A DNA stretch of 64,000 nt from Amphiscolops sp. MND2022 (lineage: Eukaryota), in the NCBI GenBank assembly GCA_964187785.1, contig OZ076409.1, positions 34,226,001 to 34,290,000 on the forward strand, in the 5' to 3' direction. Numbering within the stretch: the first letter of the stretch is position 1; every line of letters starts with the position of its first letter. Of this stretch, positions 10,834-39,182 are shown in pieces. Below the pieces are notes generated by a model. The model was not told where the DNA came from. It was given only the letters and a program-made list of their open reading frames with translations, and searched no databases. The position numbers and the translations under genes are program-made.

Positions 10834-10851
10834 ATCCCTCTGTGGTCGCCA
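10834..10851 (-). promoter_or_regulatory. Primer-binding site of element 1 (probably tRNA-Arg)
   Basis: Minus strand TGGCGACCACAGAGGGAT, complementary to a tRNA 3' end ...UCCCUCUGUGGUCG-CCA; the Arg assignment is from memory of tRNA-Arg acceptor ends. Confidence 0.75.
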
Positions 10852-10866
10852 AAAAATGAGGTCTCA

Positions 10867-11639
10867 TGTAACGGCAAGCAGTTATCGGTCGCTTAACACG
10901 TTAACAGAGGTGGAGGAACCTGCAGGAATGGGTGAATCGCTCGGGACAGGCGCCCATCGCCACAGATCCATTTTGCCTCCAGGGGTGAAATACGTCCCGG
11001 GGCCGCGGGTGCTTCGACGAATACTGTCCAACCTGTCCTAGTCTTTGATTGCTAATAGTAACGGGCATCTTTCTGACTCTCTAAAGACCACCGCTTAACT
11101 AGCATATAAAAACAATGCCAAGAATAAGGTAAATTTCCAGTTCCAGGGTGACATGTGAATAAGATCTAAAATTGGGGAATAAGATCTAAACTAGCGCTAG
11201 CGCTACTGAATGCAGCCAAAATCACTGAAAACACATGAAAACAGGCACGAATATGGCAAACCACACAGCTAAAAAGCTGGGGCGCAGGGGCTCCAAGCAC
11301 CAAACAAGGATCTTTAGGCGAAAAGACTCATTTTTACGGTTTCCGCTACATAGGGTAGCATAATGCTGAAAATCGATAAAACCGGTGTTAGCACCTCAAA
11401 AAGAGTCTATTTTCGGATGTTCTTGCCGTCTCTGGCTTCTGTCATGGCGGCGCGCCCGTATTTTTGCTCGTTCTTGCTCTTTGTTGTCGAAGTACCTGCC
11501 AATTTCGTGGAAACAGCGAAAAGAGCAATCACATGCTCAGTGCCACGTCACACATCGGATTAGAATTTTTGACAAAATTTCTGAACATGTCAAAGTTGCA
11601 AAATCGGTTGATATTGCTGTACCAGAGCTTGCCGTTACA
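10867..11639 (-). repeat. 5' LTR of element 1 (773 bp)
   Basis: Perfect 13-bp terminal inverted repeats TGTAACGGCAAGC (10867) and GCTTGCCGTTACA (ends 11639), TG...CA ends, next to the PBS; the partner LTR is outside the window. Confidence 0.75.
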
Positions 11640-12329
11640 ATTCCAAAAATGCTCGCTTGAACCGATCAGTTCGGACATAGCGTCATTCGCATTGAAAAAT
11701 TTCGGCAATGAGTTTATCATTGAAAATCCTAGAAAATTTGTATCAGCTGTCATGGTAAATTATATTTTTATCATTTAAGGAAAATCAACTTAAGGTATCA
11801 TAGTTTTATTCAGAGATTAAAATTTTTTCATTCATTTTTAGTTGACGTTTCATGGAATAAAACGCGATTGTTATAAAGGTACTCAGTTTTTTTAAAATCC
11901 CGTGGAAATGACCAACAAAAGTTTCACACAATTCTACAGAAATTTAAAAATCTTCCAAAATGTCCCTTTTATTTTAGTAACCTACATATTGGCATTCCTA
12001 ACCAAATGTGGGTTTTTCTGTCAGTGTTTCAATTTTTCTGGAAAATTTGAAAGTTCACAAAAGTTTTTTAATGTTTTCAGTTAGTAAAAATACTTTTTGG
12101 ACTTGTGTTTTTGGTCAGACTGCATTTTGTCGGAAAGATGTACCATTCACGGAAGTTTTTCTTGACTTTCCAGTGGGCGCAAAGTTTTTTTGCCAGTTTT
12201 CATGAAAATGGCCAATCAGACTCACTCCCGTATTTCAAACGTTTTCACGCCTTTTTAACGTAATTAACTCTTCAGTGGGAACCGAAATTCCCCTTTTTTG
12301 TCCTATAAACTCAGGCTGCGAATTGAATT

Positions 12330-16330: not shown

Positions 16331-16733
16331 AAAACTTATAGTTTTGCTCAGTTTGGCAAACCATATAATTCAAAGTGCGAGATTAATAAAAGTTACCATA
16401 ATAAAAGAAATTTTATGCTGCTGGAAATTTTAAAGTGGTACCAAATAATGTTGGACTTGAGAATTTATCTTTTGCCCAAAGTACGTATTAATAGTAACAG
16501 TTCTTTGCTTCTCGCATAATTGTAACCCTTCGTTGTTTTACCCAATTTTGTTTTGACAGTGTAAATAATCTGTTGGCTGGCTACACCATTCTAGAGAGTT
16601 TAGGCGAGTTCTAATTCATTCTCTGATATCTTACCTAAATTTGATGACGAATTTCAAATATCCGAGATTCATTTGTACCGTAATTATTTAAGAGCCTGGT
16701 GACTTCAGTCGATATTGTTCAAATGCTGCAGTG

Positions 16734-19700
16734 ATGTCATCAACTAGCTTCTTGTTTTGTCTTTTGGGCCTGATTTGTCTTCAATCAATTTTTGAAGCCA
16801 GAATTGATAGCTCACTAGAAGATGAAATTGTTCCCCTGAAAGAAGCTAGCAAGCACACAAAAGATGCAAGCGACCCACCAAAAGACACGAGGAAACCATC
16901 AGAAAGAGCAAACATACCTCCAGAAAAGATAGTCGAAAATCCGAAAAGTTCAATCACAACGGAAAAAGAAAAAATTGACAAGCCAAGCAACAATGTAGAA
17001 GCTCCAGCAGAGCAACCAGTCAAACCAGATAGACAACCAGTGAAAGAAACAGGTATCCCTCCGAAAAAACCAGTCCAAACAGCAAAAGAAACAGTCAAAC
17101 CAGTCAAAGAAAAAGGCATTCCTCCGCAAAAATCAGTCCAACCAGCAAAAGAACCAGTTAACCCACAGAAAGAACCAGACAAAGATGATAAAAAACCTCT
17201 TCAACCAGAAAAAGAAACAGTCAAACCGGATAAACAATCGGTCAAGCGTAATGATGAGCCAATTAATCCACCGAAAGAGGCAATTCAACCGCCAAAAGAA
17301 GCTGCTAATCAGCCTAAAGTACCGGTCACATCTTCGAAAGGAGAAAACGTTAAAGTTGCGAAAGAAAATGTTAAACTAGAAGATACGAAAGAAATAAAAA
17401 AGCCGCGAGAAGAGAAGAAAGAAACCCGCGAACACGGAAAAAGAGAAAAAGAGTTTGATGAAGTATTCGATTCATTGAAAGAAACAATCCAATTGCATAA
17501 AGAAGATACCGAAACTAATGAATTGCCAACGCAAAGCACTAAGCAATCAGAAAACACTTTTAACGCTTCGAAAAAACAATCTTCAGAACCTATTCATGTC
17601 GCAATATTAACAGGATGTGATTCCCATTTTTCCGTGACTGCCCAAATTGCTTCCTCGTTAATTAAATGGCCTTCGATTGCAGGAAAATATAGAGTCACCT
17701 ACGTCACAAGTTCCAATTGTAGAGATCGAGTTGAGAAACTGGGCGCGCAACTACATGACAATGGAGTGTGGTATTTCCCTATCACAGACCCTGATGTCGG
17801 GGTGTTCGAGTTTTACAAGAATCTTACCATGGGTTAGTGATGTGATTATTAGAACATTGACTCAGGAAACCAATAACAACAAGAGCACAATTTTTGATTG
17901 AAGAATTAACTGGTTGATTTGACATTTTGGGTAATGAGCAAGGGTCACGCACTTCCGCCTTTATTAACAGTGTTGTATACTTTGAATATAAAGTAAGACA
18001 ATAAGGATGTTGTGTTAATAATCTATTCTGATCAGTATCACGAATGCAAATGTTAGTGAATAGATTCGTATGTTCTAACATAGTATACATAGCAGGCAGA
18101 TGACGAAGTCAACATAAAGGTGGTGGTAGGAATGATTGACATGCATGTCTGTCAAGGTATTTATATCACAAACAGCTTCTTGGTAACAAGTGAAATAGAT
18201 GACGATTTGAAGCACAATTGGCAATGAAATAAAGAATGACAAATTTCTTTGTCAGTCAGCCTTTGAAAAACATTACTCTCTGAAATATTTCCCCCGGACA
18301 AAAAATTGACAAGATCTTTGTACGAAATCTGTGCCGGGTCTGGATCCAGAATAGGATATCACTGGCCACAGTCATGACAACAGAGTTCAAATAGTCTAAG
18401 AACGGCGTCTTTCAGAGAGAACTGGAAATCCTGCTTAGCTCAAAATATCTAGATTCAACAAAAAAATTACAATTTTTTCAGCTGTGTTTTTCAACCTCCT
18501 GTGAAAGTTCAACTCAGTTCAACAAGAAACCATTGCAAAACCATCAATACAAACTTTGTATCAGCATCGGAGATTGTAATTATAGCACCAAGAAAACAAT
18601 TCGGGCCAAGAATATAAATTTATGGAGTCGAAACTTTATTAGTGATTGCCTATGCGAAAACAAGATGTTGAGAAGTTCAAATACCACAAAGAGACACTTT
18701 TATTTTCTGTATACAACCGATAGTTTGTCTTATTTCGAATGTGCAAAAATATGTTTTCATTTTCTGTCACATCGTTTTTTACATACAGTTCTCAGAATAT
18801 CAATGACATCGCAGTTTACAGTCACCTGGAAATACTCAAAAAAATATGTCGAAACCGTATTGGCAAATCTTCATGGATCCAAAAGTCACCTAAATGTTTT
18901 CCAAGCTTAAAACTTTGTGTTTCAAAATCTCACAGGTCTTGGAATTTTGAAACAAGATTTCACGAATTTCTAAGAACGTTCTGAATTTCGGGAGCATGGT
19001 ATAGTGGTTAGAGTAATCGACATGTACTGAGGCGGTATGAGGTTTGAACCTCTCTACACACCATTACTGAGCCTTAATCAATTCTTATCCTTACCATCAT
19101 CTTTACCCGGGTTGACCCTCTTACTAGCATCTTGACTGTCTTGGCAAGATTTTAGCAAATTCTTACTACATCTTGGCAACCATGGAACCCATGGAAAGAT
19201 TCTTATTAAGATCTTACTAAGATAACACATTACTTCAAGATCGTATCTTATGATGAAGGAGAAAATTCTACGACTATAAAAAACACTATACCTTCGGTAC
19301 AAGCAGCCGAGGCTCAATCTAAAGTCTCTTTTCACCCAACAACGACTATTTTTACTCGTTTTCACTGTCGAAGTGCTTCAACCTGCTGAAACAAATTTGC
19401 ATGCAAAAATGCGTGAAAAATTACGATAACGTATCTTGGCTTCCGAACTTCTGACGAGATTCCTGATAACTGCTCACCTCTTTAAGTTTAGAGAAATGCG
19501 AATGTACCAAATGAAAGCTCATTTCAAGGGCTTTTGAAAACTTGCAACTTATAACTTGCCATTTTCAGAGACGGAGAAAAATGCCCTCAAACGTCCAAAG
19601 CCACTATCGGAAAGTTACTCAGGGAACACTAAGAAATACGGATGTACTATTGTCAATTCATATCACCAGCTTTCTTTGAGCCTGTTTCAGCAGCCATATT

Positions 19701-22491
19701 ACTGCTGAAAACAGCTGTCATTGGCCCGGTTTGGGTAATGATTCATCTCCTGGCTTGGGTTTTTTGACGCCAATCAGTGCTTCCCTAAATAAACAGCATA
19801 AGGACTCTTAAATCAAATTTTATACATTGGTAACAGAACGTTTTAATGTCTCACAATGTAAATCTGCATAGATGTTGATTTTGTTGACAGATTCTTTCTG
19901 GCCAAATAGGATTTTACAATAAAATTTTTTTGGGAACATGGCTCTCTTTTGAGATCTTACCATGGCATTAATTACTAATTTAATACCGTGGCAAGATCTT
20001 GTCAAGATCCTAGCCAAGATTGTTCCAAGATCTTGCCAAATTAATACCGTGGCAAGATCTTGTCAAGATCTTAGCCAAGATTGTTCCAAGATCTTGCCAA
20101 TATCTTACTAAGATATCCACAGAGGGTCAACCCGGGTAGTTTGGTGGTATGGTCAATGACAAAAATAACGCAATTGGTGGAGAAAAGCAGAAATAAAAAA
20201 AACAACAATGAGAAGTCAGACCTTTGTGACCTTGAACAAGACACTTACAATCCACAGCTTCAAACCAGCCATTGCTTGACCACTTGGCTGCGAATATGGT
20301 AAAATAGGGTCCGAAAGGGTGCCGACTGAGAAAAGCAGAACTGCTTTCTCAGGATCGACCTGGCGGAAGAGGGAAAAACATTCTTTCGTTGACGTATTTA
20401 TAGAACTTTACTGGACTTTCAAAAGTGTGTCACGACAGAACATCGACTATTTCGGCCTTCCTGATTGACAGTCTTTCCACCAATAATCCAGATTTTTATT
20501 TCAAAAAAGTTGCTTTTCTTAACGTTTCTATGTGATATTATGGATTTCACATTCACATCTATATTGAAGTAGGCTGGTGCATGGGCGAAAAAGGAGCTTT
20601 TCTAGTATGCGGTCAATCCTAGTAACCCCTTTTTTTCTAGTGACCTCTGTCAATTTTTCTCCCAAGTTTTTGAAAGGATTTTTTGTTTCAACTGTTCAGG
20701 CATAGCAAAACTAAAACCTTATGTCAGAAGTGGTATGGTTTTGTCATAAAAAGCACCAGCACGTCACAATTTGTTGCGAAGTCTTTTGCACCTCATTTAT
20801 CAAGAATAACTTGTGCGGGAAAACAAATGTTAATCAAAAGATGAGTCATTAAAAACGATTGTGAATATTAAAAACGATTGTGAATTCCAACGTCATCGCT
20901 TTACAAATTTATCAACGGTTCATTTTTTTAGGTATCCTTATTCACACCGTCAGTAGTTTGGAGAGCTTGATGATGACGGACCGACCAGACATTGTCATCA
21001 GTGACCCATTTGGCGCTGCTGCAGGAACCGTAGCTGAGAAATATGACGTGCCTTTCTTAGTGGGCTTGATCATGTCATTTCCTTCTACCCGACAATGCAA
21101 GGATGGAGCAAAAGTACCAACTCCTTTGACGCCATCCTTCATTTTAGACGAAAGCAATCCTATGTGGTTGTTGAAAGCTGCCTGTACTGTGCATAATCAT
21201 ATTGGTACTATAATGACGGAAGTTATCGCCCACGAAGCCCGTTGGAAGATGAATGAAATTCGCCAGAGTAACAACCAGGAACAGTTCGACAATATCAACC
21301 ACATGTTTTCCTACTATCCAATCCTTTCGTTACTCGGTTAGTTGTTACGTGGAAGACTCATTATCGAAAGATTGGTAATTTTTCCAAAACCTAAATGATT
21401 GCAACCATAAATGACGTAGTTTCGATTTTTTTTGTCCGAATTCTATCCAAACTTGAAACTATCTGAAGATGACACTTATAACTCAATAAAGATTGGTTTT
21501 ATTTCTAGGAAAACCATTGACTCACACAGACAACTATGAGGACAAAATATTGCACGTCGGTGTTCTTCCTGATGTTTCCCCAGCTGTTGAGACGAAAATG
21601 GAGCCTGAATTGATTGATTTCATCCAAAAAAGCGACAAGCCTTTGATCTACATTTCTCTTGGAACTTATTTTGCGTTCTCAGAAAAGCACTTGCAGGTCA
21701 TTGTTGATGCCTTAGCATGGCAGCCTCACTATAATGTTATCTGGTCTAATAAACGGTGGACTCCTGAAATGGATGAAAAACTTGACAAAGGAAGATTTTT
21801 CATGCGAGCTAGTCTTCCTCAACGAAATATTTTGGAGTGCGGAAAAGTGTAAGTTCTCTCACATTTGGAAAGTTTCGGAAAACGTCAATTGCGTTATCCA
21901 TGAATGTCGTTATCCACAATTGTCAGTGTTTTTCAAGTATTCGGATGTTTCCTGGAGATTGTGTTTGTTTATTGAAACATTTGTTTCAGGAAGATCTTTG
22001 TTTCACATTGTGGTGCCAGTTCTCTGGTAGAAAGCATTCGAGCTGGTGTACCAGTCATCGGGGTGCCTCAAGGAAGAGACCAATACTTTCTGGCTCGAAG
22101 TGCCGAAGTTGCCAAAATGGGAGTTCAACTCTCCAGTGAACCTGCCCCGCAAGATCTGCTTCAGGCCTTGGACACAATCAGATCCAATTGGCTCTTCTAC
22201 CACAACAACATGAAAGATGTTTTGCATCAGTTAACACACAACTCTCAGCAAAATTTGGAGCGCGTTATTGACATGTTCGTTGCTAAAGGTCACGCTGTGG
22301 TCTTTAAAAACAGCTCCCTTTTCCCTAGCACTCACGCATTCGCATTGTTCGGAACAGTAGTTATTCTACTTCTTGTTATACCGATCTCGATTTTGTACTG
22401 CATGCTTCGATTGTGCTGCTCAAGAAAGTCAACATCAGTAACTGATGACAAGAAGACGAAAAAGAAAAAGAAGAAGAGCAAGAAAGATTGA
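16734..22491 (+). CDS. UDP-glycosyltransferase (GT1/UGT family) paralogue 1, 781 aa; exons 16734-17832, 20932-21336, 21509-21848, 21990-22491
   Basis: Signal peptide; catalytic-His region GCDSHF; PDIVISD; LIYISLGT; signature LPQ...FVSHCGASSLVESIRAGVPVIGVPQGRDQ; C-terminal TM helix and KSKKD (KxKxx). GT-AG introns phase-compatible; exon sum 2346 nt. Confidence 0.93.
18990..20350 (+). mobile_element. tRNA-headed SINE, family B (CORE-like), split by a MITE; in UGT1 intron 1
   Basis: A box TGGTATAGTGG, B box GGTTTGAACC; body resumes after 20138 and matches 40160-40470. Confidence 0.75.
19106..20136. mobile_element. Non-autonomous TIR DNA transposon (MITE), 1031 bp, TA target duplication
   Basis: 16-bp perfect TIRs CCCGGGTTGACCCTCT / AGAGGGTCAACCCGGG flanked by TA on both sides; subterminal CAAGATCTT-type repeats; a 61-bp tandem duplication at ~19980-20100. 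Confidence 0.88.
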
Positions 22492-23342: not shown

Positions 23343-25529
23343 TGTCACGACCCGCTCCCGGTCGGGATTTTTCCTGTTGCGGGGGAATACCGAAATTTGC
23401 AAGAGGACGAGGACATGGCAGAACCACACACAACTAGGTAAAAACTTTGACTGATCACTTACCTTTGTTTAACTGTAGTACGAGTTAATAATCAGAACAA
23501 AAGGATTTTAGCCTAACGAAAGCGATAAGTAAAATATCCAAAAGTGATTTTAGTCGGAACGAGACTTCCGGTATAAAGTTTTCATGCGTGACCGTTCCGT
23601 TACTTCCGGTTTCGTCAGCTGAAAATTCCATACAAATCTAAATAACAAATTAAAAACATTCTTAACTTTGGGACCTTTCTCTATTCCACACTAAAATGAA
23701 AACATCAAAATGAAATTCAATTCCGAGGTCCCAACGGAATTCATACAATCTAAAATGAAAGAACATACAAAGAGAATGGCGGAATTGTTTTCCAATGATA
23801 GAATAGTTGTGAATATCCACTTAAGAACGCAGTTAAGCAACTTGAGAGAATATCTACAACGTAATGACGGCGTCACTCAGCTTGATTGAAGAGTAGATGT
23901 TTCTATTTTTACGGACCAATAGCGTCGCCTTTCACCATTCCTAGTTACCATAGCAACGCCAATTAAGCGAGAGAATAAGAATGAATTTGTTAATGCTGTC
24001 CGCTCTGTCTCCGCAAGCAAGCGTTGCTCAGTTATACCTAATCTTAATACGTACGGAGTGCTTACGGAGCAAATTGTAATGCGAAGAAGCTATACCTAAT
24101 CTTAATACGTACGGAGCGCTTACGGAGCAAATTGTAATGCGAAGAAGCTATACATAATCTTAATACGTACAGAGCGCTTACGGAGCAAATTGTGAAATGA
24201 CAAAGTTATGCCTAATGTTAATACATACAGAACGACTAAAGAGAAATGCTGCAAGATCAAAATTGTTCTAATATATCAAGATATTCCTTATGCTATACGG
24301 AACCGTAAAGGAACTTCCAAAATATCATAACATTAAAATAATACCTTTCCGAATTGTTCCCGTTTAACACCGAATAAAATCGATCGTACTACAGGTTAAA
24401 ACAAAGGAAATCATTGAAAAAAAGGTGCTTTCCTTCATTTTGAAAAAGTTGTTTTGTACATTTGATATGTTATGTTCTTTGGGCTAAATGAGCCATTGTT
24501 CTGTATTAATCAAACCATTATGTTCCAATACATGTAAAATTAGTTCAGAAGCTTAAAATGATTCTGTGTTATATTGTTTGCCATCTCAGCTCATGATCAG
24601 TATTTTCTAGCATCATTTGTTCTCTTCAAAATATTCCCAGCACGTTTACCTAAAATCACTCCGAGATATTTCCGTAGTCAAGTTTGCTTGTCATTCTTTT
24701 ACCGCGAACAAGATGATTTTCACTAGTCTCGTGATGAATCGTTGATCACGCCTGCGTGCCTTTCGCGATGAAAATTCAACTAGGCTTCCATTTTGCCGCC
24801 TTTTCCGCGATCAAACCGGAAATGATGATAATGAACAAAAATGATTTCAACAAGCACTCCGTAAGGGAGCCGTGACTAGGAATTTTAAATCGTGAACAAT
24901 TAATTAAAGGGTTGAAATAACAAGGATGATTAAGCAATTTTGATGAACAAAACCGATTTTAAGGATTCCTAGGAATTTTTAGGTGAGGAACAAATGATGC
25001 TATGAAGGTATATATACCTGAGAAGATGTAAAATCTGTTAATCTGTTTTTTAATCTGCTACGTTAATACTTCGTTTCAAAACCATATTTTCTTTGAAGAA
25101 TTCGAGTTTTCCAAAGAATAACCTCTCTTTCTTTCTCTCTCTCAAAAATGACTACCAGAAGCCAGAAGAGAAAAGCTGCTGAGGAATTAGTTTCTACTGA
25201 AATTGAGACTCCATTACCTGAAACTAGCCAAAATTCAAATCCCGTAGCGGGAACGAGTAAATCTCCTAGAGTACTCACTGAAAACCTAGAGGGAATCAAA
25301 TCATCATTGAGGAAAGAGATCATGTAGGATCTTACTAAAATCTTAGCTGAAAACCAGAAGGAGATGCTAAAACTAATAGCTCCTACTGTTAAAAAGCAAA
25401 CTATCATAAGAGCCGCTGAGGAAACAGATTCTGAATCCGAAAACATTCCGGAAAATGCAACTTCAACACCAATCAAAAACAAAATCACTGCGACTACCCG
25501 TAAAATTACACCGGTAAATAGTCGTAACA
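23343..25529 (+). repeat. 5' LTR of element 2 (2187 bp)
   Basis: TGTCACGAC...GTCGTAACA ends; direct repeat of 36997-39182 with about 25 differences counted by eye; followed directly by PBS-like TGGTGACAAGAG. Confidence 0.96.
24033..24235 (+). repeat. 58-bp tandem repeat inside the LTR (3 copies plus a decayed partial); same array at ~37686-37890
   Basis: Unit TATACCTAATCTTAATACGTACGGAG(T/C)GCTTACGGAGCAAATTGTAATGCGAAGAAGC starts at 24033, 24091 and 24149. Confidence 0.92.
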
Positions 25530-26560
25530 TGGTGACAAGAGTCCTCAATGACTCCACAAATATGGGGAAAAAGAAAACACGACCACACCGCCCACAAAGC
25601 CTGCCACCCAACGAACGAACCACGACATCAAGACTACTATTCGCCCCCCAGCCGGAAATCCATCCACCACCTCAACCTCCTTCAATGCCAAAAGCCCTCA
25701 CCGCATCTCTGCCTGTGTTTGATGGTAAGTCCGAAAAATTCGAACTTTTCGAGGACTTATTTCGAAACAACATAAAAATGTATCCACATCTAACAGAAAT
25801 CCAAACAATCAACTACTTCCACTCGCTACTACGAGGCAATGCACTACAAGCATATTGCAACTTAGACGATGCCAAAAAAGATAACTTAGAGGAGGTAATT
25901 ACGGCGTTCAAACGGCGCTTCGGAGATTTTCAATCTTCGGCCAAAGCGAGATGCGAATGGGACTCGCTACATTTTGACCCAACCAAGCAAAAGTTACATG
26001 AATTTTTGGACACACTGCAAAAAACAGCTAAAGAAGCGTTTGGCTCAGAAGCACAAAAATTCATAGACAAGGCCATATACGCCAAAATGCCGGACCACGT
26101 CAAAAAGATTCTCGACCGAGCCTACCTCGAGGACAAACCTTATAACGACATTGTCCTACATCTTGAACGAGAGATGCGCCTTAATGGTCTGGGAACCCCA
26201 GACGAAACCACGCTAGTACCACTCAATACAGTCGACGTCGTCCCACCGGAATCAAAAAAGGAACTCACCAATCGAGGAAGCTGCTTCCACTGCGGCAAAC
26301 AGGGACATTATAAAGCACAATGCCGCAAACTACGAAAAGATCGCTACTACGAAACTAAAGCACAGAACGGCATTCCCAATACCAATGAACCACCCAAACC
26401 AAAGTGTGACGCTTGTGGAAAACTCCACAAAACTGAGAACTGCTGGTACGGAGCTAACGCGGCGAATGACCCTAGGAAGAAACGACACGAGTTCGCCATA
26501 CCCACAAACCAAATCAGCGAACAACAAATCCCTTCTATTGAAATCCAGCCAAAAAACTAA
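25148..26560 (+). CDS. Element 2 gag, starting inside the 5' LTR; TAG at 25325-25327 in this LTR copy (TCT in the 3' LTR)
   Basis: MTTRSQKRK... at 25148 is in frame with the 25364-26560 ORF; capsid-like LPVFDGKSEKFELFEDLF; knuckles CFHCGKQGHYKAQC and CDACGKLHKTENC. Confidence 0.88.
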
Positions 26561-29500
26561 GAACGCCGCGCCTCCGCTTCGGGGAAACGGTAGACGCAAG
26601 GGCGTACACAATAGAAGACCCCCCAATAGGTATGAAGAAGACTTCCTCACAGAATGCAATGAGGAACCCACCCAAGACTGGCAACGTCGTTGGAACGTAG
26701 GCATGATACTCAGACACAATGCCCGACACCCAGAGGACCCAACACCACTACCGCAATGGATAACAGAATCACCCGATAACTACGCGACACTAAAAAGACC
26801 TCTACCAGAATCAAGGACCGAACGCATTTACATATATGATAGAGACTATAGATGTGACCCCTGGGACGAACCAGCCATCTATGACACAAACAAACTCTCT
26901 TTCAAAATACAAGTTTCAAATCCTCAAGCCCAATGCACTGAGAGTACAACCTTACCATCACCACCGTCACCAATCTTAAAAAAGACAACACAGTCCTCGA
27001 CAATACCCGTCACCACCACGCCCACACCAATAGATGCAGAGAACATCATCTGCATCGAGGATAAAACAATATGGACACAACAAGCAAAAGAACAACGTGG
27101 GGCAGCCAATCAAACAGTATCACCCCCAACAACAACACCCGAATTGCCAACTCAGGACAACAATCATGCAGACGACGAAGTAACGGAAAGCCCACAACAA
27201 CTGCCATATGATCTCAATATCATAAAAGAATTCATACAACATGATAAAGACGACGACTACATTCCGTTAATGTCAGCAATTACCCTCAAAAAGAAGAAAA
27301 GAATGCTCTTTATTCCTCTTGACTTTGAAAATACTAGAATTGATGCATTAGTTGACTCGGGAGCCTACATCAACGTCCTCAGCGAAAGAGACACAGACAA
27401 GATACAAAATGAAGCCAAAGCAACCAAAATCGCGATAGCACCTCCGCCCCCTTTCAAGATACAATATGCCAACACCGAACTTGAAAATGCCCGCGCGACA
27501 CATACAATGCAGTTCAAAATCGGTGACTACGCGTTCGAAGAGACTTTCATCATCATGACCAAAACATCTTACCAAATCATCGGCCTGGCATTCCTCCGGA
27601 AGCACTCCGCAATACTAGATACTGCACAAGGGACAATAGACTTTCCTAAAATACAAATCACTCTAGCCCTAAAAGATGAAAGACAAAAGTGCAACCCCAA
27701 ACCCATCACTATCAAAACGGAAGAAAAACACACCATACCAGCCCAAGCCACGCGGATCATCCACGCTTCCATCACTACAAGTAATGACCACCCAATAACT
27801 GGGACAGTCCAACCTCTACCACAGTTCGACGAAAATGCAAAACTCAAAGTAGCCCCAGCAATAACAAACGAGTCGCGATAAAAATAGCGAACACCACAGA
27901 CTTCCCCTATACAGTAACGCCACATACGAAACTAGCAGAATTACAAATACTGAAACCTGAAGAAACGAAATTGATACGAGCAGTAGATATAGCAGCCCTC
28001 AATCTACTCACCGAACACGACGACGTTGTTGCGTATGCTAATGCATTGATGCAAGTTGATTCGTCAGAACAAACAGAAGAGAAATTCTGGTTCCCAACTC
28101 CCGAAAATCCCGGAGATGAATCGGAACACACACCCATCCAACAACGCATTCTACGAGAACTACGCGAACTACAAAGATTAGAAGAACTGGATCCTAAACA
28201 AGACGAAAAATCCAGAACACAATTCCTTTCGCTATTCAAATGGAATGACTCGCTAATAACGGGGGAAGACCGTGAAAACCTAGAGTCCACCCTAGTCGAA
28301 TTCAATGACATCTTTGCACGTCACCGACTAGACATCGGAATGCACAACCAGTTCAAAGTATGCCTAACCCCTAAAAACGACAAACCGGTATATACACAGA
28401 GTCTCCCCGTACCCATCAACCTCAAAGACGACCTCACAGTAGAATTAGCGCTGATGCACAAATATGGGATCATCACAACTCTCCCATTCTCAAAGTATGC
28501 CAGCCCCATCTTCGCGCAACGCAAACCTAACGGCAAATTGCGGCTCCTAGTGGACTTACGGAAGATCAACGCCCTCATCTCAGATGACTACATAAACAAT
28601 AACCACCCCATCAGCACCCTCTCAGACGCCGCACAACACCTAGCGGGGAAACAGCTGTTCTGCAAACTAGACTGCTCACAAGCCTATCACTGCCTCCAAA
28701 TGGCAGATCAAAGGTCAGTAGAACTCCTTGCATTTAATTTTGCTAGTAGAACGTTTGCCTATCGCAGGCTAGCCCAAGGACTTAGTAGAGCCTTGTCGGC
28801 CTTTTCGAGCTTCATGCGGGAATACCTCGACACCGTCATCAAAGCCGACCAGTGTGCCCAATATGTGGACGACATCGGGATTGCCGCCAACACAACGGAA
28901 CAACTCATCAAGAACATCAGAGCAGTCTTCAAATGCATCCGCAAAGCCGGACTAAAACTCACAATTGAAAAATGCCACTTTGGCGTCACCCAAATCGAAT
29001 TCCTGGGAAGAACCATCACACCCCACGGAGTAGCACCGCAAGATCACAAAATCACCAATTTTTTGTCAAAAATCAGATTTCCCCGATCAAAGAAACAAGT
29101 CCAGAAATACATTGGATTTATCAACTACTACAGAAACTACATACCGAGACTGTCTGAAAAGATGATTGGAATGTATGAACTCCTAAAAGCAGATGCAAAA
29201 ATCACCATATCAGAAGAACTAGTCGACAACTTCAAAGCCATCAACGCAAGCCTAGCGGAAGCATGTGGACTAGCCCTCAGACAACCAGTTGCGGGAAAAC
29301 AATACGTACTTATGACGGACGCAAGTTTCCGAGCATCAGGACATGCCCTAATGATAGAAGAAAACGATAACAAAAAGCTACTCTCCTAACGGAAAACTTT
29401 CGCACCGGTCGCTTTTGGCTCCCGCGTATTTTCTCCGTCACAGCTGAAAATGTCAATATACTGTAAAGAGTTCCTCGCCATTTACCATGCATTCTTAGAA

Positions 29501-31752
29501 TACAGTCATATCTTATGGGAAACGACACTACCAACTCTAGTCTTAAAGGACAATAGATCAGTAACAAAGTTTTTCCAAACAAAGACAAAGCCTATTGCGC
29601 TCTGGAATGCTTGTGACTATGTACTACAATTCAAATTCCGCATTATGCACGTAGCCGGGTCACAAAACACAGCTGCCGATTTCCTGTCTCGCCTAGAACT
29701 AACGCCAAAAGGAAAAGTTCAGCTCAAGCTACGAGACGACATTATAACGGCGCCCATCGAAGTCAACCTACAGTCCACAGATGTTGCTGACGAAGAACAA
29801 CTTTTTTCCTACCAGACGAGGAAGAAGAATCAGAACAAGAAACTTTTGCAAGAAAAGCTCTCAACAAACAACGAGCAGAGGACGAAAAAGAACAACAAAA
29901 CTTATCCACTGAAATAACAGAAGCAGTCCATATACCGCTCAATACGGCAGTCTACGCTTTTGGAGCAATCAAAGAAAACGCCCGAATACGCAACGAACAA
30001 GATGCAGATCCAATTCTGAAAGCACTAAAGCTACGTCTACTACACGAGGAATATGACAAACATGTCCTCAAAACTGAACCAAGAGGGAGAAACTTGCTAC
30101 GCCACGAAGAAAGAATAATAGTCAAAGATGGAGTTCTCATGCGCAAATATTACGGAGAAGATGGCACAATCACGCACCATCAAATCCTCTTCCCGAAACA
30201 CATAGACCCTGAACTCCTATCAACTCTGCACGGAAAAACCAACAAACATCCAGGAATAACAAAAATGATCCAAGAAAGCCGAACAAAATACTACTATCCG
30301 GGACTTGCTCGGAAAACTAGAGCCTGGGTAATCAACTGCCCTGACTGCATAGCCAACAAACGGATCGACACAAGACAAATACGCCCAAAAATGCTGAGCA
30401 ACACAGAATTTACCTTTGGCCCAGAGGATTGCTTAGAAGTTGACATTCTGCCAAATTTGCCTTCATCCAATGGATACAGGCACATCATAACAATGATGGA
30501 TGTTTTCTCTCAATACCTCTTCGCATACCCTACGCAAGACATGACAGCCAGAACAGTAGGCCGATGCATAATCGACGTAATGACACGCCATTGTTACCTG
30601 CCTACAATAATCCTCACTGACAAAGGATCACAATTCCGATCAGATGTTGTAAATCAGATAGCACAAACTCTTGACATACGAATTAGCCACGCATCAACGA
30701 AACATGCACAAACGATTGGAATACTTGAGAGAACCCACGCATCACTAAAAACGTCCTTAAAAATATCAACGGGAGAACGACGTTCAATGTGGCATAAATA
30801 TGTACAAATTGCAGTTATGAACTATAACACAAGCTACCACGAAAGCCTAGGCTGCGAACCGACAACAGTATTCCACGGACGCATCCCGTACAACATTCTG
30901 GACATCAAACTGGGACTCAAGCCAGAATGGAAGAAAGACGCCAACGAAGGTCTAACGGATGAATTACAAAAACATATCACCGAAATCCACCAGTCAGCCA
31001 AGGACAACCTCATGCAATCATATTTGAAGTATAAGCGATATTACGATAAAAAAGTGACAGCAACGCCATTGAAAATCAATGACTAATGCTACGTCCTAAA
31101 TCCGAAGGCTGATAACCAGTCAATGAAATGCGCTTTCAAAGATTGCATTTGGGCAGGGCCATATATAGTGGTCAAAGTCCTTTCCAATAACAATTACGTT
31201 GTAAGACGGACGGGAACAAGATACACGCAAACCCTCCATAGAATTCGCCTAAGGCTATACGCACCCAATCAACGAGTACCTGACGTAACAGTCAAAGTGG
31301 AAGATCAGCTTCCAGATCCTGAGGTTAAAACAACCCATGATGATTGGTACGCGCAAGCTTGGGAAACCGAAATCGGAGAAGTTCTGTTCGGAACCCCAAC
31401 GGAAAACAACACTGAAGAAGCTACTATCACGGAAGTACAAGCTGAAGACGGAAATACAACGGACCATGAAACAGTTATAACAACTGCAGATGAGAGTACA
31501 ACGATAGATAAAACATCCTCCGGAGATAATACGTCATTTAACTTAGACGTCAGCGAAAACCCTTTCATAATGAGCCCGCCGCCTACAGAAAGCCCCCCAA
31601 TACCACCTACACTGCCGCCTATAGTTGTTGGATACAATCCCAGAAAAACAGGAAGATATAACTTACGTCCTAATCCTAAACCTAACGCACACCCCGACTT
31701 TAGGATGCTGGACGCAATCATCACGGAAGAGAATTCTCAAACTCAAAATTAG
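26551..31752 (+). pseudogene. Element 2 pol (PR, RT, RNase H, integrase), disrupted
   Basis: ALVDSGA, YVDDIG, MTDAS, H...H...CPDC, EVDIL/TDKGSQF/ERTH, WAGPY. Lesions: probable 1-nt loss at 26619-26624, frameshifts at ~27870 and ~29806, TAA at 29387 and 31084. Confidence 0.95.
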
Positions 31753-31930
31753 ATAAAAACGATCAGAGAACCAAACCGAACCGGGATGGCTATGTTAATT
31801 TGGTTCCTCCTTATTACACTAAAACTACAAAAATACACAAAAAAAGAATACGATTCTCAAGCAGTCTCTATACATCAACAACAAAACTGCAAAAGCCAAC
31901 AATCAGAATAAATCATACAAACACAGAGTG

Positions 31931-34900
31931 CTACAATTTCTTCAGCTTATGAAAGATTTCCGGATCCTCATCGGTACTGTCTTTTACCTTCTTAGGCTTC
32001 TTCTTATTTTTCTTCTGGGGACTAGTACACGTAGTAGCCTCTTTACTAGAACTTGACTTCCCAGTGGACACAGCACGTTGACTAGGGCCCTTCCCTTTTG
32101 CCGACACAGAAACATTGCCACCACTCGTTGCTGCCACAGACGTACCCTGCAATGCGCGGGCAAGACGATTACTCTTATTGAGATCAGAATAATAAGACTC
32201 GAAAGACTGACGGCGACCGTGTAAAAAGGTATCGTATAGGCCCTGATATCGGGACGCAAACGCCTCGGCAATTCCACTACAAAATTCCGTCCACAGATCA
32301 AAGTTCGGAGCCACGTAAAACACCCCAGCATCAGCAATTGCCTCTTCCACAGCGTCCAAAGTGGGATCAGTAAAAAAGCTTTTATGTGAATACCGAGGGC
32401 TCAACACATAACTCTGTACCAAGAGCAAACACTCGCGGAACTTCTGTTCAGATAATTTACTCGCGCTCAGGTCGAAAGTCACGACAGGATAATTCTCACG
32501 ATGCCTGCCTGTAATCAGCACACACAGTTTCAAAACTCGACAAGCATGCACACGAGCTTGAAAACCAAAATCGCGCAGCAGCCAACACACGATGTCAGGA
32601 ATCTCACTAGCCACCCCCATAGATGCCTCGTGATGAGAACGCCTCTCCACAACGTAACTACTGAACTCCTCTACCGCAGCTTTTGATTCATCGGACAATA
32701 GGGCCCCACAAGTTTCAAAGATCCGACAAAGATCCGAAAATAGGCGGAATACTAACTGTCCGTCACCTTCTAACAGTAGCTCTGGACAAAAGCTGTATAA
32801 CCCGCGAGACACTCGGGTTGATGCGCTGGGACTCTTCAAAATCACTACAATCAGTCGGTCAAGAAACTCCCGACAACGCACGCGGAACGTAGAGAACTCG
32901 CTTGTCTTTCCAGCCAGTAACTCACGCCCATAATCAGAACCAGCAAGAAAAGACTCCATGGCGATCGGAGGGAACTCGGCAACCTTCTCTACATCCATAA
33001 ATTTCTCCCACTCATTCAAAGTAGGGAAGCTCTCAGTGCGCCGCGTCTTCAGTAGTAAACAATATACGAAGTCACACAATTCGCCATATCCGTGGAACCC
33101 GTAGTCACTCCGTCGCTGCAACAACTTTGCACAATTGATGTGAACTAAAACAGATCGAAATAGTCAGGTAGGCCATTACGCAAACCACTCGGAAACAACA
33201 GAAAATAAAACACAAAAACAGTACTCAAACAGTTGGAGACAAACAGTCACAACACGAAACAATCCAGCATGATATACTCACAAGTATCGAGAACCAGCCG
33301 CAACAAACCGAAACGATACGGCGTCATATTGTCCGCAATAATATGCCAGTCTGTCCCCTTCATCTAAAAACAATCACCTACTATATCAGAGGAAAGTAAC
33401 AAGCATAGAAAAGCGACAAAAAAAGGGAGGAAAAAGGGGGAGAAGGGGAAAGAAAGACACACGTGACAAATAAGAAGAAACAACTAACGGTATCAGCTAT
33501 CTCCTTAGCTTCGGGATGGCCTGTACATCGAACGAAAGGTTGTATTATTGGCCACAGATCAATAACGTCAGATAAAAATTGACGGTAATCAGCAAAGTCC
33601 ACGGAGCCCTGACGTACACATTTACGAAGAACAAATTTATCCTCCGTCCACTCCTCGTACAAGGCACTCTTGAGAAGATGAATTAAATACTCCACTAAAG
33701 TTACAATGCTGACCATTCCGAAAATATCTTTGTCAGCCTGCAACACACACTGGAGTAACGTCTCTTCATCAAAGGTTTGATGCACCACAAACCGACGTCC
33801 ATCAGCGCGATTGTCGTCCAGCACCCGGATCAAAGACGGACTAGCCCCGAGAATAGATATAGGCAACTAGCTTGCGCTCAAACTGCGAACAACTTTGGAC
33901 AAAGGCAACAATTCCGGTAGGGGTACAGCCTGATTCAAAGCTTCACAGCCAACACAAATCTTCTTGACATCCTTGTCGTCCCAATACACAACGTAGCAGC
34001 GCTCATCCCCACACTCCTTCTCAAATTGGACGCCATAGCTCCGGAAACTCATGAAGCTGCTACGCATAGAACGCAACACCCGCGGAGCAAGACCTCGGCA
34101 CAGAAACGACTAAAAAACGCACAGTCAAACTTACCTCTGAAAAAACGGGACTTGCACTTCTGAGGAAAACACCTTACAAATAGGATGAGGGGACACGTTA
34201 GAGAAAATTAGAAAAGAAAAAGAACCCTACATAAAATACTAACCACGGTCTCGGAACGACTCCAATTTAAAGCAAACTGTGGCTCTTGCTCCTCGCTCAA
34301 CGACGCAAGAAAGTGGCTCCACAATCGACGAAGCAACAGGAAATCGCCTCCACTACGTAACAGCTCGCACAGACAGCCCACCAAAGTCATGAAAGGCACT
34401 TTCGAACCAACCCGAGAGTGTTTCGGCAAGAGTTCTTCAGGGAATGGGTATCCCTCACTAAGGTCTTCAAAAGGCCGCGATTGATACTCCGCTAATTGAC
34501 TGGCAGACAGCTCCATTGGCTCCATAAAACTGTTCAACACTGGTAACTTCATGTGTACACGATAAGTCACATCCTTGAACCAGTGACTGTCGGACTGGAA
34601 GTGGCGAGCAAATTCATCAGAGCCGTGAGCCTTTATACCGACATCTCGGCGACAAACGCGACAGAAGAAAAACTTGCCGTTACCACTCCGAGGCCCCGAC
34701 ACAAAATCGGGGAACGCTGGATGGAGATTTAGCATCCGTCGATGAAGGTAATTGCGGCTGCTGTATTTCTTCTCCTTAGGCCGTTTAGACAGCCGGTCCC
34801 CCATCTTCTCAACAAAATCGTCAAGACCTAGAAGAAACACCAACAACCATTGAGTAAACCATCACATGCAACAAAGTATTACCACCAAGACAAAAAAAAG

Positions 34901-35863
34901 AAGAAAGAACCAACCGATCTGAAGCCGAGTCTCCACCTGGCCCGCAAGCTGACGCCCAAATTCCAAAATATCCTGCGGACTGAGAGCAGTACCACCAGTA
35001 AGAAGCAGAAGCTCTGGCTCATCTTGACCTGAACAAAATAACACCAAATACCCCCTAATATCAAACACAGAAGATAATGATTATCGTCAAAGAAAAACAC
35101 TGACTAATCCATCCAGGAGCACGGGTCAAAAGTGGAGGCGGAGGAACAATCTTTTTAGCACGCTTAGGCGGGGTCGCAAAATTGACTGACGTCCTACGGG
35201 CAGCACTCGGTTCACCTGCCCAACAAAACACAAACAAGATTTATAAATAACACCACAGAGTCGCTTATTCTAGTCATTCAAAATTACAGACCCTTCTTCG
35301 CAATTTGGATGAGGGGGGCATCAGTCTCACCTCCTTGAGACTCACTATCTGAACCATCAGGAGGGGAAGGAACAGGATCGGGGACATGGGGTTGCCTCTC
35401 ATCAGGATCAACGCCGGCACTCGCTGGATCTTCAGCGGAACATGAAAGGAAAAGTCCAGATGAAGGCCCAGATCCAGACGCACTAAGCGCGGAAGTCAAC
35501 ATATCATTGACAGAAGCACGAACAGTCAGAATGGTTGAAACCGGAGGCAACACGGAAGAACTGGAAACAACTACTGCCGCGGAAGTGACACAAGTATTAG
35601 CGGCTGAAGTTGAGACAGGTTGAGGTACTGAAAATCAAGATCTGGTTTGACGCGTCAGAGTTACGGGTAAGACTACAAAAAGGCTGATCACCAAAAACAA
35701 GATCCAATTACCCATGGAAGTCAGAAAGATTTTACCAACCTGCTCTAGCACGAACAAATTCTGTCTCCGATTGCACATCGTCATCGGTGTAATTAAATGT
35801 TGTTTCATTCCCACTAAGGAAACCAACAGAAGGCACATGAGGGGAATTACCTTCATTCTCCAT
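31931..35863 (-). CDS. Spliced antisense accessory gene in element 2, ~1061 codons, BED-like zinc finger; coding exons 35863-35740, 35627-35292, 35215-35105, 35028-34915, 34827-34244, 34109-33489, 33363-33282, 33144-31931; one in-frame TAG at 33869-33867
   Basis: Seven introns of 76-137 bp, all GTnnGT...YAG with mostly T-rich tracts and all phase-compatible (exon sum 3186 nt); joins six minus-strand ORFs of the track into one frame; CRVC-x16-H-x5-H motif and NLS-like PPKRAKK. Confidence 0.85.
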
Positions 35864-35899
35864 CGCGGGCAAGCAGCGGAAGAAATCTTCAAAACGATC

Positions 35900-36356
35900 T
35901 AAAACAAGAAAAGAACAATTAGGAAGATACAGTCAAAAGAAAAAAAAACAATCTGAATTTTTCAGAAACGTCTAAGCTTAAGGAAAACGTTAACGGAAGA
36001 TTAACGAAATACAAATTGGTCAAATCAAGGAAGAAATACTAAGAAAGAAGAAACAATTTGCATGCCATGACGTCACACAAACGATATCCCTTCGGGAAGA
36101 AATTGATGACGCCATAACGAAATCCAAATTTAGAAACTTCATCTCAACGGTTCAGCCAATCACAGAGCAGATGGAAGTGAAACGCTTTCCGAAGATGAAA
36201 CGAAACGGAATAAGAAGAAAAATATCAGCCAATAGGAATACAGGAAAAACACGAATAGAAGAAAATTGACCTCTTCATTTACCGTACAATAAGCGTAAAG
36301 AAAAGTTTGTCCAGAATTAATTCTTCAAGTCTCAGACAGGAATTGCTAAAAGAAAA
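35900..36356. promoter_or_regulatory. Candidate internal bidirectional promoter between two divergent accessory ORFs
   Basis: TGACGTCA at 36068-36075, CCAAT at 36156 and 36229; lies between the start codons at 35863 (-) and 36357 (+). Confidence 0.4.
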
Positions 36357-37091
36357 ATGGACAACTATGCCCTTGTCATCGACATCTCATCGGACGAAGA
36401 AGAACAAAGGACTATGGCGAGGCAAAGCACCCCAATTAAAATAGCTCCCGTCAACGTAATAACTACGTTAGACCTGTCCGGATCTTCACTAGAAGCTACC
36501 AAAGGGAGCGCTGAAGAAGTGATGTCCTCCATCAATGAACATAACTTATCAAATATATCTGCCTCAACGTTTGAGACAATAGGCTCCCCCAGAAAAATAA
36601 CATTCGGAACGTCAAGCCCCGGAGAAGTTTTTACAGTGGAGGGACAAGCCGCTGAAAATTCGGAAGAGAGCTATTATGAAGAACCTGATACCCCGCGGCA
36701 GTTACCCCCACCGCAAAGTGCACCGGTCCTACAAGACGTGACTAATCGCCAACACTCGTCAAACGAACCACCTACGAAAATTGATCGTCTAGATGATCTA
36801 ATGGAGCCTCATATAAATGAGATAGAAGAGTCCTACGGAATCAGTTTGCAGGACAGCCCGAAGTACAGCCCGCTGTGTGGTCGCGGAACCCGCTACACGT
36901 CTGCCAAGTTAACAAGAATGCAAAAACAGCCCGTGCTTATCACTAGAGAAATCCCACATTGCCCCAGACCTTGGTCAACAGGCTATAGAGGCGCCCTGTC
37001 ACGACCCGCTCCCGGTCGGGATTTTTCCTGTTGCGGGGGAATACCGAAATTTGCAAGAGGACGAGGACATGGCAGAACCACACACAACTAG
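36357..37091 (+). CDS. Accessory sense ORF of element 2 (244 aa, acidic, Ser/Pro-rich, unknown function); ends 95 nt inside the 3' LTR
   Basis: Uninterrupted ORF with AAAAATGG start context; N-terminal VIDISSDEEE; no recognised domain. Confidence 0.6.
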   Translation: MDNYALVIDISSDEEEQRTMARQSTPIKIAPVNVITTLDLSGSSLEATKGSAEEVMSSINEHNLSNISASTFETIGSPRKITFGTSSPGEVFTVEGQAAENSEESYYEEPDTPRQLPPPQSAPVLQDVTNRQHSSNEPPTKIDRLDDLMEPHINEIEESYGISLQDSPKYSPLCGRGTRYTSAKLTRMQKQPVLITREIPHCPRPWSTGYRGALSRPAPGRDFSCCGGIPKFARGRGHGRTTHN

Positions 37092-39182
37092 GTAAAATCT
37101 TTGACTGATCACTTACTTTGTTTAACTGTAGTACGAGTTAATATTCAGAACAAAAGGATTTTAGCCTAACGAAAGCGATAAGTAAAAAATCCAAAAGTGA
37201 TTTTAGTCGGAACGAGACTTCCGGTATAAAGTTTTCATGCGTGACCGTTCCGTTGCTTCCGGTTTCGTCAGCTGAAAATTCCATACAAATCTAAATAACA
37301 AATAAAAAACATTCTTAACTTTGGGACCTTTCTCTTTTCCACACTAAAATGAAAACATCAAAATGAAATTCAATTCCGAGGTCCCAACGGAATTCATACA
37401 ATCTAAAATGAAAGAACATACAAAGAGAATGGCGGAATTGTTTTCCAATGATAGAATAGTTGTGAATATCCACTTAAGAACGCAGTTAAGCAACTTGAGA
37501 GAATATCTACAACGTAATGACGGCGTCACTCAGCTTGATTGAAGAGTAGATGTTTCTATTTTTACGGACCAATAGCGTCGCCTTTCACCATTCCTAGTTA
37601 CCATAGCAACGCCAATTAAGCGAGAGAATAAGAATGAATTTGTTAATGCTGTCCGCTCTGTCTCCGCAAGCAAGCGTTGCTCAGTTATACCTAATCTTAA
37701 TACGTACGGAGTGCTTACGGAGCAAATTGTAATGCGAAGAAGCTATACCTAATCTTAATACGTACGGAGCGCTTACGGAGCAAATTGTAATGCGAAGAAG
37801 CTATACCTAATCTTAATACGTACGGAGCGCTTACGGAGCAAATTGTGAAATGACAAAGTTATGCCTAATGTTAATACATACAGAACGACTAAAGAGAAAT
37901 GCTGCAAGATCAAAATTGTTCTAATATATCAAGATATTCCTTATGCTATACGGAACCGTAAAGGAACTTCCAAAATATCATAACATTAAAATAATACCTT
38001 TCCGAATTGTTCCCGTTTAACACCTAATAAAATCGATCGTACTACAGGTTAAAACAAAGGAAATCATTGAAAGAAAGGTGCTTTCTTTCAGTTTGAAAAA
38101 GTTGTTTTGTACATTTGATATGTTATGTTCTTTGGGCTAAATGAGCCATTGTTCTGTATTAATCAAACCATTATGTTCCAATACATGTAAAATTAGTTCA
38201 GAAGCTTAAAATGATTCTGTGTTATCTTGTTTGCCATCTCAGCTCATGATCAGTATTTTCTAGCATCATTTGTTCTCTTCAAAATATTCCCAGCGCATTT
38301 ACCTAAAATCACTCCGAGATATTTCCGTAGTCAAGTTTGCTTGTCATTCTTTTACCGCGAACAAGATGATTTTCACTAGTCTCGTGATGAATCGTTGATC
38401 ACGCCTGCGTGCCTTTCGCGATGAAAATTCAACTAGGCTTCCATTTTGCCGCCTTTTCCGCGATCAAACCGGAAATGATGATAATGAACAAAAATGATTT
38501 CAACAAGCACTCCGTAAGGGAGCCGTGACTAGGAATTTCAAATCGTGAACAATTAATTAAAGGGTTGAAATAATAAGGATGATTAAGCAATTTTGATGAA
38601 CAAAACCGATTTTAAGGATTCCTAGGAATTTTTAGGTGAGGAACAAATGATGCTATGAAGGTATATATACCTGAGAAGATGTAAAATCTGTTAATCTGTT
38701 TTTTAATCTGCTACGTTAATACTTCGTTTCAAAACCATATTTTCTTTGAAGAATTCGAGTTTTCCAAAGAATAACCTCTCTTTCTCTCTCTCTCTCAAAA
38801 ATGACTACCAGAAGCCAGAAGAGAAAAGCTGCTGAGGAATTAGTTTCTACTGAAATTGAGACTCCATTACCTGAAACTAGCCAAAATTCAAATCCCGTAG
38901 CGGGAACGAGTAAATCTCCTAGAGTACTCACTGAAAACCTAGAGGAAATCAAATCATCATTGAGGAAAGAGATCATGTCTGATCTTACTAAAATCTTAGC
39001 CGAAAACCAGAAGGAGATGCTAAAACTAATAGCTCCTACTGTTAAAAAGCAAACCATCATAACAGCCGCTGAGGAAACAGATTCTGAATCCGAAAACATT
39101 CCGGAAAATGCAACTTCAACACCAATCAAAAACAAAATCACTGCGACTACCCGTAAAATTACACCGGTAAATAGTCGTAACA
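36997..39182 (+). repeat. 3' LTR of element 2 (2186 bp)
   Basis: Direct repeat of 23343-25529, followed by TSD AGCAT; carries an intact copy of the gag N-terminus from 38801. Confidence 0.96.

Follow-up and report, generated by a model that had tools for sequence, protein, structure and literature searches.

The window analyzed here, a stretch of 64,000 nucleotides from a genome assembled at 1.07 Gb, contains a 15.8-kb LTR retrotransposon at positions 23344 to 39182. The 5′ LTR (23344 to 25529, plus strand; 2,186 bp, TG...CA) is preceded by the sequence AGCAT, and the 3′ LTR (36998 to 39182, plus strand) is followed by it, forming a 5-bp target site duplication (TSD). The two LTRs differ at 24 of 2,186 columns, and a primer-binding-site-like sequence starting with TGG adjoins the 3′ end of the 5′ LTR. 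Pfam matches on the plus strand (gag and pol, 25149 to 31752) identified gag, protease, reverse transcriptase (RT), RNase H, and integrase (IN) in the Gypsy order, with stops and frameshifts interrupting gag-pol in the window copy. With its TG...CA LTRs, short TSD, and gag followed by PR-RT-RH-IN, the element is of the Ty3/Gypsy type. The gag ATG, at 25149, lies inside the 5′ LTR, and the gag frame reads out through the LTR end and the primer-binding site (25149 to 25529; 38801 to 39182); hence, about 125 gag codons are present in each LTR. Each LTR also contains four tandem 58-bp units (23972 to 24304 and 37625 to 37957).

Comparison of DNA among families identified a conserved noncoding block immediately after the pol stop codon (31753 to 31801, plus strand); on the pol side, DNA similarity with seven other families stops at 31800 to 31805. 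Toward the other end of the internal region, a candidate internal two-way promoter with CCAAT and TGACG motifs (35864 to 36356) would separate the start of an antisense gene from a conserved, acidic sense open reading frame (ORF) of 244 amino acids (36357 to 37091, plus strand) that ends within the 3′ LTR. This ORF is arranged head to head with the antisense gene, is probably disordered in its product, and had no Pfam match. Relatives or pieces of it were present in all nine intron-rich copies of the element examined, and an analogous sense ORF of 100 to 194 amino acids was present in all three intron-poor copies.

Other features of the window lie outside this element. A second, different Gypsy-type element with protease, RT, and RNase H occupies the left end (1962 to 7160, minus strand). 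A 381-codon open frame at 16692 to 17837 (plus strand) encodes a Lys/Pro/Gln-rich repeat with a 21-bp period and had no Pfam match. Two coding-looking stretches that are 78% identical (21984 to 22082 and 63589 to 63687) are probably exons of paralogous host genes, and two adjacent long palindromes at 59515 to 59844 (40-nt arms with 98% and 119-nt arms with 93% complementarity) are MITE-like.

A spliceable antisense gene between pol and the 3′ LTR

The antisense gene (35863 to 31931, minus strand) has eight exons, all read on the minus strand, and 1,048 codons. Its seven introns are all GT-AG and 76 to 137 nt long, and splice sites were fixed by comparison of genomic copies. Exon 1 (35740 to 35863) carries the predicted start codon, exon 2 (35331 to 35627; 297 nt) is Ser/Pro rich, exon 3 (35105 to 35215; 111 nt) contains the motif PPKRAKK (residue 156, at about 35171 to 35151), and exon 4 (34915 to 35028) is 114 nt long; Ser, Pro, and Thr together make up 33% of the N-terminal 215 residues. 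Exon 5 (34244 to 34827) encodes a CxxC-x16-H-x5-H finger at residues 268 to 298 (Cys codons at 34663 to 34661 and 34654 to 34652; His codons at 34603 to 34601 and 34585 to 34583) and helices that match the end of the dimerization/DNA-binding domain of the Hermes transposase. Exon 6 (33489 to 34109) encodes a predicted RNase H-like core and the start of an insertion domain. The 82-nt exon 7 (33282 to 33363) is followed by exon 8 (31931 to 33144), which encodes the predicted helical insertion domain, the C-terminal hAT region, and a low-complexity basic tail with KKNKKKPKK, beginning at residue 1022. The peptides SYGVQFEKEC... and RVHACRVLKLCVLI begin at residues 434 and 842, respectively. Basic stretches resembling nuclear localization signals (NLS) occur in the protein, and most relatives also have basic tails.

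An earlier sequence-only reading of this DNA placed the antisense protein at 31931 to 34827, and every peptide that it quoted is found in the minus-strand translation, within the single spliced frame. The range itself covers exons 5 to 8; PPKRAKK and the Ser/Pro-rich N terminus, which were quoted with it, lie in exons 1 to 4, extending to 35863. The window copy has one in-frame TAG, at 33869 to 33867 in exon 6. The core exon (exon 6) is free of stops in 15 of the 18 copies in which it is unbroken, and the donor of the finger exon (exon 5) and the acceptor of the core exon were canonical at 36 of 36 junctions scored (copies L031 to L050). Comparison of copies led us to drop an initially considered micro-exon between exons 5 and 6.

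Relatives of the gene that are poor in introns hold the regions of exons 5, 6, and 8 in a single ORF, in the same order. Residues 230 to 1026 of the spliced model aligned without a break to positions 20 to 803 of a profile of these relatives, with a score of 362 bits; as a control, none of 20 shuffled sequences scored >5 bits. The shared order and the unbroken alignment confirm the exon chain independently of RNA data. The first three zinc ligands of the finger (C, C, and H) did not vary among all 14 divergent rows, and the final H was kept in at least 90%. These comparisons indicate that the antisense gene is not a chance ORF.

A profile of the finger exon, searched against 1.84 billion proteins, gave 420 matches at an E value of ≤0.001, including an 890-amino-acid protein. 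This protein, used as a lead, identified 39 unnamed proteins; one of them, the intron-poor relative P0186, has 100% identity with an ORF of the same genome. A search with divergent finger exons returned five unnamed ENA proteins. For two proteins, P0089 and P0116, the best in-genome matches are ~39% and ~33% identical, respectively; since neither has a close match in this genome, the gene family is probably present in other species as well. No longer homologue of the last exon was recovered by searching.

The gene was convergent (tail to tail) with pol in all 20 window-related copies, all 8 intron-poor copies, and 19 of a further 20. In total, pol was faced by the gene or a relative in 47 of the 48 genomic copies checked, which were top matches rather than a random sample of the ~7,000 to 12,000 candidates counted at first look. 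In the one exception, the closest pol lies on the same strand and is that of a different family. The gene is thus antisense, fixed in position between pol and the 3′ LTR, and conserved across copies, as are the antisense ORFs of other LTR elements. The retrotransposon has been multiplying recently, with LTR pairs up to 99.9% identical. At one locus (G000:C10:2574480-2603965), three copies of the intron-poor gene lie exactly 13,639 bp apart, forming a tandem array of near-identical elements. In a sister lineage (G000:C13:52474841-52477078 and copies L096 to L111), whose RT is 66 to 78% identical to that of the window, the finger, core, and C-terminal part form one ORF of ~800 to 880 codons. The three introns of this region are absent there, indicating gain or loss of introns within the element.

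Predicted fold and probable loss of catalytic residues

Sequence searches did not connect the antisense protein to hAT transposases. In Pfam scans there was no hAT link, and both zf-BED and Dimer_Tnp_hAT (PF05699), which the sequence-only reading had singled out, were unmatched; scans at E values up to 10 gave no match to PF04195 (Transposase_28). Profile searches of PDB sequences likewise gave no hAT link, exon profiles showed no similarity to the host hAT ORFs fetched, and hhalign against an alignment of host hATs returned a probability of 0.2. A pattern derived from a hAT-subfamily motif matched 3 times, compared with 12 for the control, and a donor hAT family in which the DDE triad is intact was not found. 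For the finger, with its conserved CxxC-H-H, a profile match had a probability of 0.34 and ESM Atlas leads scored 0.89 to 0.91; ESM Atlas rows of the hAT family (0.81 to 0.91) gave weak leads to FAM200, ZBED5, GTF2IRD2, and DUF4371 clusters.

We then turn to predicted structure, the other check that the sequence-only reading had proposed. P0186, a relative ~25% identical to the window's exons rather than the window's own protein, was modeled at full length with AlphaFold2 without templates, from an alignment of 79 family rows that included no hAT sequence (pLDDT, 86.7). Between residues 189 and 268, the order of elements in the model is three strands, one helix, a fourth strand, and a second helix; a long helical region comes next. 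In a Foldseek search, ranks 1 to 11 were all Hermes (E values of 3.3e-4 to 6.5e-3), and the next listed match had an E value of 0.16. VIA-align superposed the model on Hermes with Z scores of 12.3 to 13.5 and a root mean square deviation (rmsd) of 5.1 to 5.6 Å over 380 to 404 residues, pairing model residues 123/152 to 648 with Hermes residues 116/135 to 609; TM-scores were modest (0.29 to 0.36 by query length), and the zinc finger lies outside the superposition. Among 48,161 chains, Hermes was the only one with a Z score of ≥8. The next scored 6.0, and Tn5, ISCth4, and RAG1 scored 5.5 to 5.9. In a library of viral models, the only match at an E value of ≤0.001 was a hAT-family protein (E = 7.6e-5). 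This sole significant viral structural match, BFVD A0A811BLV7, is a Pandoravirus japonicus protein annotated as hAT family.

A core exon closer to that of the window (copy L032; ~96% identical) was modeled with a pLDDT of 80 and again had Hermes as its first Foldseek match (E = 7e-4; TMq, 0.51). In a wide search with this exon, Hermes was tied by Z score (6.1) with unrelated RNase H-like folds, and the alignment covered 177 residues for Hermes versus about 75 for those folds. The RNase H of MMLV aligned to residues 182 to 614 of the full-length model, i.e., split by an insertion. The predicted models thus contain the arrangement that characterizes hAT transposases, an RNase H-like core that is split by an alpha-helical insertion domain. 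The N-terminal helices aligned in part (model residues 123 to 165 with Hermes residues 116 to 150), and the C-terminal alignment reached Hermes residue 609, in a region with neither a PF05699 match nor an ERxFS motif. The proposal of a captured hAT-type transposase is therefore borne out well beyond the zinc finger in the predicted structures. We consider it very probable that the antisense gene is a hAT-derived pseudo-transposase kept as an accessory gene of the retrotransposon.

Hermes requires D180, D248, and E572 for activity (PMC2533014). We placed the equivalent columns in the antisense protein by strand order, alignment end points, and the Hermes sequence, rather than by residue-level superposition. 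In this inferred register, exon 6 of the window copy has E at the D180 equivalent (34022 to 34020) and G at the D248 equivalent (33848 to 33846). In the 23 intron-rich rows, the D180 column reads E18/V4/T1 and the D248 column is G throughout; in intron-poor rows, the counts are Q15/R11/L4/H3/K2 (36 rows) for D180 and G22/N5/D4/S3 for D248. Past the helix that matches Hermes residues 553 to 564, the model has a proline-rich loop ~7 residues shorter, without the Glu helix and without ERxFS, and there is no helix at model residues 607 to 627; in exon 8 of the window copy, the catalytic-Glu helix is missing at 32515 to 32480. In the equivalent columns, [FY]xx[DE] stands in place of CxxH and xF in place of RW (TRW is kept in 13 of 14 host hAT rows), and the structural Trp (Hermes residue 333) is invariant in the family. 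The sequence-only reading had anticipated a catalytically dead protein, and the equivalents of the DDE positions are indeed not conserved. Its replacement of D by E in the first core strand holds for YGVQFE, where E occupies the D180-equivalent position; it is particular to the window lineage, and elsewhere in the family the position is occupied by V, T, Q, R, L, H, or K. The RVHAC... helix precedes the missing ERxFS motif, in agreement with the reading of the C-terminal region.

Transposon ends were sought as well. There was no 9-mer inverted repeat between the two flanks of the gene, the 25 longest pairs included no inverted terminal repeats (TIRs), and no 8-bp TSD of the hAT type surrounds the gene; the TSD present is the 5-bp duplication of the LTR element. 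The DDE triad, CxxH, and RW are predicted to be lost. With catalytic residues and TIRs missing, the gene would be neither an active hAT transposase nor a nested hAT element, its fold having been kept.

Selection, exchange, and possible function

Between subfamilies, the median dN/dS values for the three large exons were 0.134, 0.107, and 0.114, calculated from pairs with unsaturated dS (n = 5, 13, and 2, respectively). RT and IN had a dN/dS of 0.03, and dN of the antisense gene was ~10-fold that of RT/IN. These ratios indicate that the antisense gene is under purifying selection (dN/dS of about 0.11 to 0.13). Against the closest copy, L033, dN/dS was near 1 in the antisense gene, RT, and IN alike, as expected of decay after insertion.

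The gene might instead be a passenger, either a nested hAT insertion that is decaying or a protein whose match to Hermes is a chance RNase H-like resemblance. The in-frame stop in the window copy, the ratio near 1 against L033, and the blank sequence searches would fit such an origin, but RT and IN are near 1 in the same comparison and the gene is under selection between subfamilies. Moreover, the gene lacks TIRs, and the match to Hermes covers ~400 residues and several domains and stands alone. We regard this explanation as already largely refuted and scarcely tenable.

Trees of RT and of the finger exon agree in their deep splits and disagree in their shallow splits. The agreement of the deep splits indicates that capture predates families whose RTs are 73% identical. 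For the core exon, the grouping of six copies that form a clade in the RT tree (support, 99/97) was rejected (p-AU = 0.0013). We conclude from the trees that the antisense gene is exchanged between element families.

Exchange and divergence bear on a role at integration, in which a protein of the same hAT origin would bind cDNA ends or target DNA and carry or steer the integrase complex. Transposase scaffolds bind DNA ends, and the basic NLS-like stretches could serve such a role. Insertion of Copia elements seems to be guided by a captured MBD (PMC6673714), and Vicient and Casacuberta suggest nuclear import for antisense ORFs (PMC7264820). A gene that is swapped independently of RT and has a dN ~10-fold that of RT/IN is, however, a poor fit for a fixed partner of integrase, and the TSDs are ordinary 5-bp duplications. 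We consider a role at integration unlikely.

One noncoding part of the gene is conserved more strongly than its surroundings. A 127-bp block over intron 1 (35616 to 35742) is bounded by CAGGTTG/CAACCTG, a 7-bp inverted repeat, and is 83 to 96% conserved across families, compared with about 60% for the flanking exons. The borders were invariant in 15 of 15 aligned copies, with GGTTG/CAACC in one family; the block was not detected in more distant lineages. Compensatory changes in the block were found in 2 of 28 and 1 of 27 pairs, and an Rfam scan of the element gave nothing credible. We rejected a free MITE as the identity of the block: at each of 12 loci it lay inside an element, and the flanks examined there showed no target duplication. 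The block is a candidate binding site or RNA element.

Its inverted ends raise the question of residual enzymatic activity, i.e., a noncanonical nuclease or recombinase that acts, for example, on the 127-bp block and aids exchange of the module. The retained fold and the sharp conserved borders around the variable module (31801; 35616 to 35742) are consistent with such an activity, as are acidic residues 1 or 2 columns away from the canonical ones in some lineages (D/E at model position 618 in 32 of 33 intron-poor rows; D at position 620 in 8 of 8 intron-rich rows). On the other hand, no acidic column is common to all lineages, the Glu helix is missing in the model, and the block stays within the element, without target duplication, at the loci examined. 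Template switching in conserved blocks would account for exchange without an enzyme. Retained catalysis is, in our view, highly improbable.

The protein could also act against other transposons, as a dominant-negative or end-blocking inhibitor of true hATs or of competing elements, or against its own element, as a self-limiting repressor. Dead transposases that retain DNA binding can serve as repressors, and the host genome has many potential targets (150 scored PF05699 matches over the cutoff, from true hAT transposases). Yet the antisense protein is not similar in sequence to the host hATs fetched, and what the retrotransposon would gain is not evident. We think that inhibition is quite unlikely.

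We favor, with a probability of roughly 0.6, a reading in which a selected antisense gene with a predicted hAT fold but without its catalytic residues encodes a likely nuclear, DNA-binding regulator that aids expression of its own element. The reasons are that the DNA-binding parts are kept while catalysis is lost and that the gene changes and is swapped much faster than integrase. That the protein is a nuclear DNA-binding regulator that either promotes expression of the element or shields it from silencing we would put at even odds. DNA binding, target choice, and anti-silencing are functions that the sequence-only reading had suggested as possible. An ancestral element would have taken up a hAT transposase in reverse orientation. 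The captured transposase would then have lost its ends and catalysis, with the zinc finger, dimer helices, and scaffold remaining. A spliced antisense mRNA would be made from the internal promoter, as suggested by the CCAAT and TGACG motifs in the interval that separates the antisense start from the small sense ORF. Introns may persist because the genomic RNA that is reverse transcribed is the sense strand, on which antisense introns are not spliced. The protein would bind sites in the element, candidates being the 127-bp block in intron 1 and the LTR, and would act in trans to activate the element or to protect it from silencing. That the gene diverges faster than pol and is swapped as a module would then follow from shifts in target sequences or from conflict with the host. 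A bolder form of this proposal, doubtful at present, is that a class II transposase was domesticated by a class I lineage to serve it as a sequence-specific factor for anti-silencing or transactivation, with the 127-bp block as an operator derived from a hAT end and the gene swapped between families as a specificity cassette.

Relation to known systems

The closest structural counterparts are Hermes and other hAT transposases (PDB 8edg, 4d1q, and 2bw3), with which the antisense protein shares the predicted order of a C2H2-type finger, a helical domain, a split RNase H-like core, and C-terminal helices. Identity is only 8 to 12%, and the equivalents of D180, D248, E572, CxxH, and RW are not conserved. 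In contrast to Hermes, the antisense protein has an additional disordered N terminus and a basic tail, and its gene lacks TIRs and an 8-bp TSD and sits in an LTR element.

In genomic context, the gene resembles the antisense ORFs of Grande (gene23), RIRE2, Retand (TRP28/PF04195), and Boty. PMC7264820 and PMC11963269 describe a similar position and orientation, presence in most copies, conservation, a probable promoter of their own, and a nuclear role. These ORFs are from plants and fungi, and their origin is given as unknown in PMC7264820. TRP28 of Retand corresponds to PF04195, whereas the present gene had no PF04195 match and has seven introns and a recognizable class II origin. The same 2020 review holds that antisense ORFs are unlike other transposable elements, so that an origin from nested elements is not supported. 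In the present case, an origin can be named for one of these orphan antisense accessory genes, against that view of nested-transposon origin (PMC7264820), and other orphan accessory ORFs merit structure-based examination. The gene also provides a concrete protein, candidate sites, and natural variants for the study of self-regulation or anti-silencing in retrotransposons. In our literature search, which covered sources other than most subscription papers and Repbase reports, no transposase-derived accessory gene in an LTR element was reported; the accessible part of a paper on Troyka (PMC12440569) mentions nothing similar.

Loss of catalysis with retention of a hAT scaffold is known from host genes. 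DAYSLEEPER has kept the scaffold and lost DDE and TIRs, as here, and it retains DNA binding (PMC8616336). The ZBED, FAM200, and GTF2IRD2 families are host-domesticated dead hATs whose likeness to the antisense protein rests on ESM Atlas leads. DAYSLEEPER and these families are fixed host genes, whereas the present gene travels in a retrotransposon that has been multiplying recently. Mobile elements that keep a foreign module for their own benefit, as here, include CopiaMBD (PMC6673714) and Teratorn, a piggyBac-herpesvirus fusion (PMC6431247). The MBD of CopiaMBD is a host domain, and Teratorn integrates by an active transposase. The present element, unlike Teratorn, brings its own integrase, and its transposase is predicted to be dead. 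It appears that an enzyme of the cut-and-paste type was disabled here and retained by an element that moves by copy and paste, not by the host, and this extends across families with RT differences of up to 27%.
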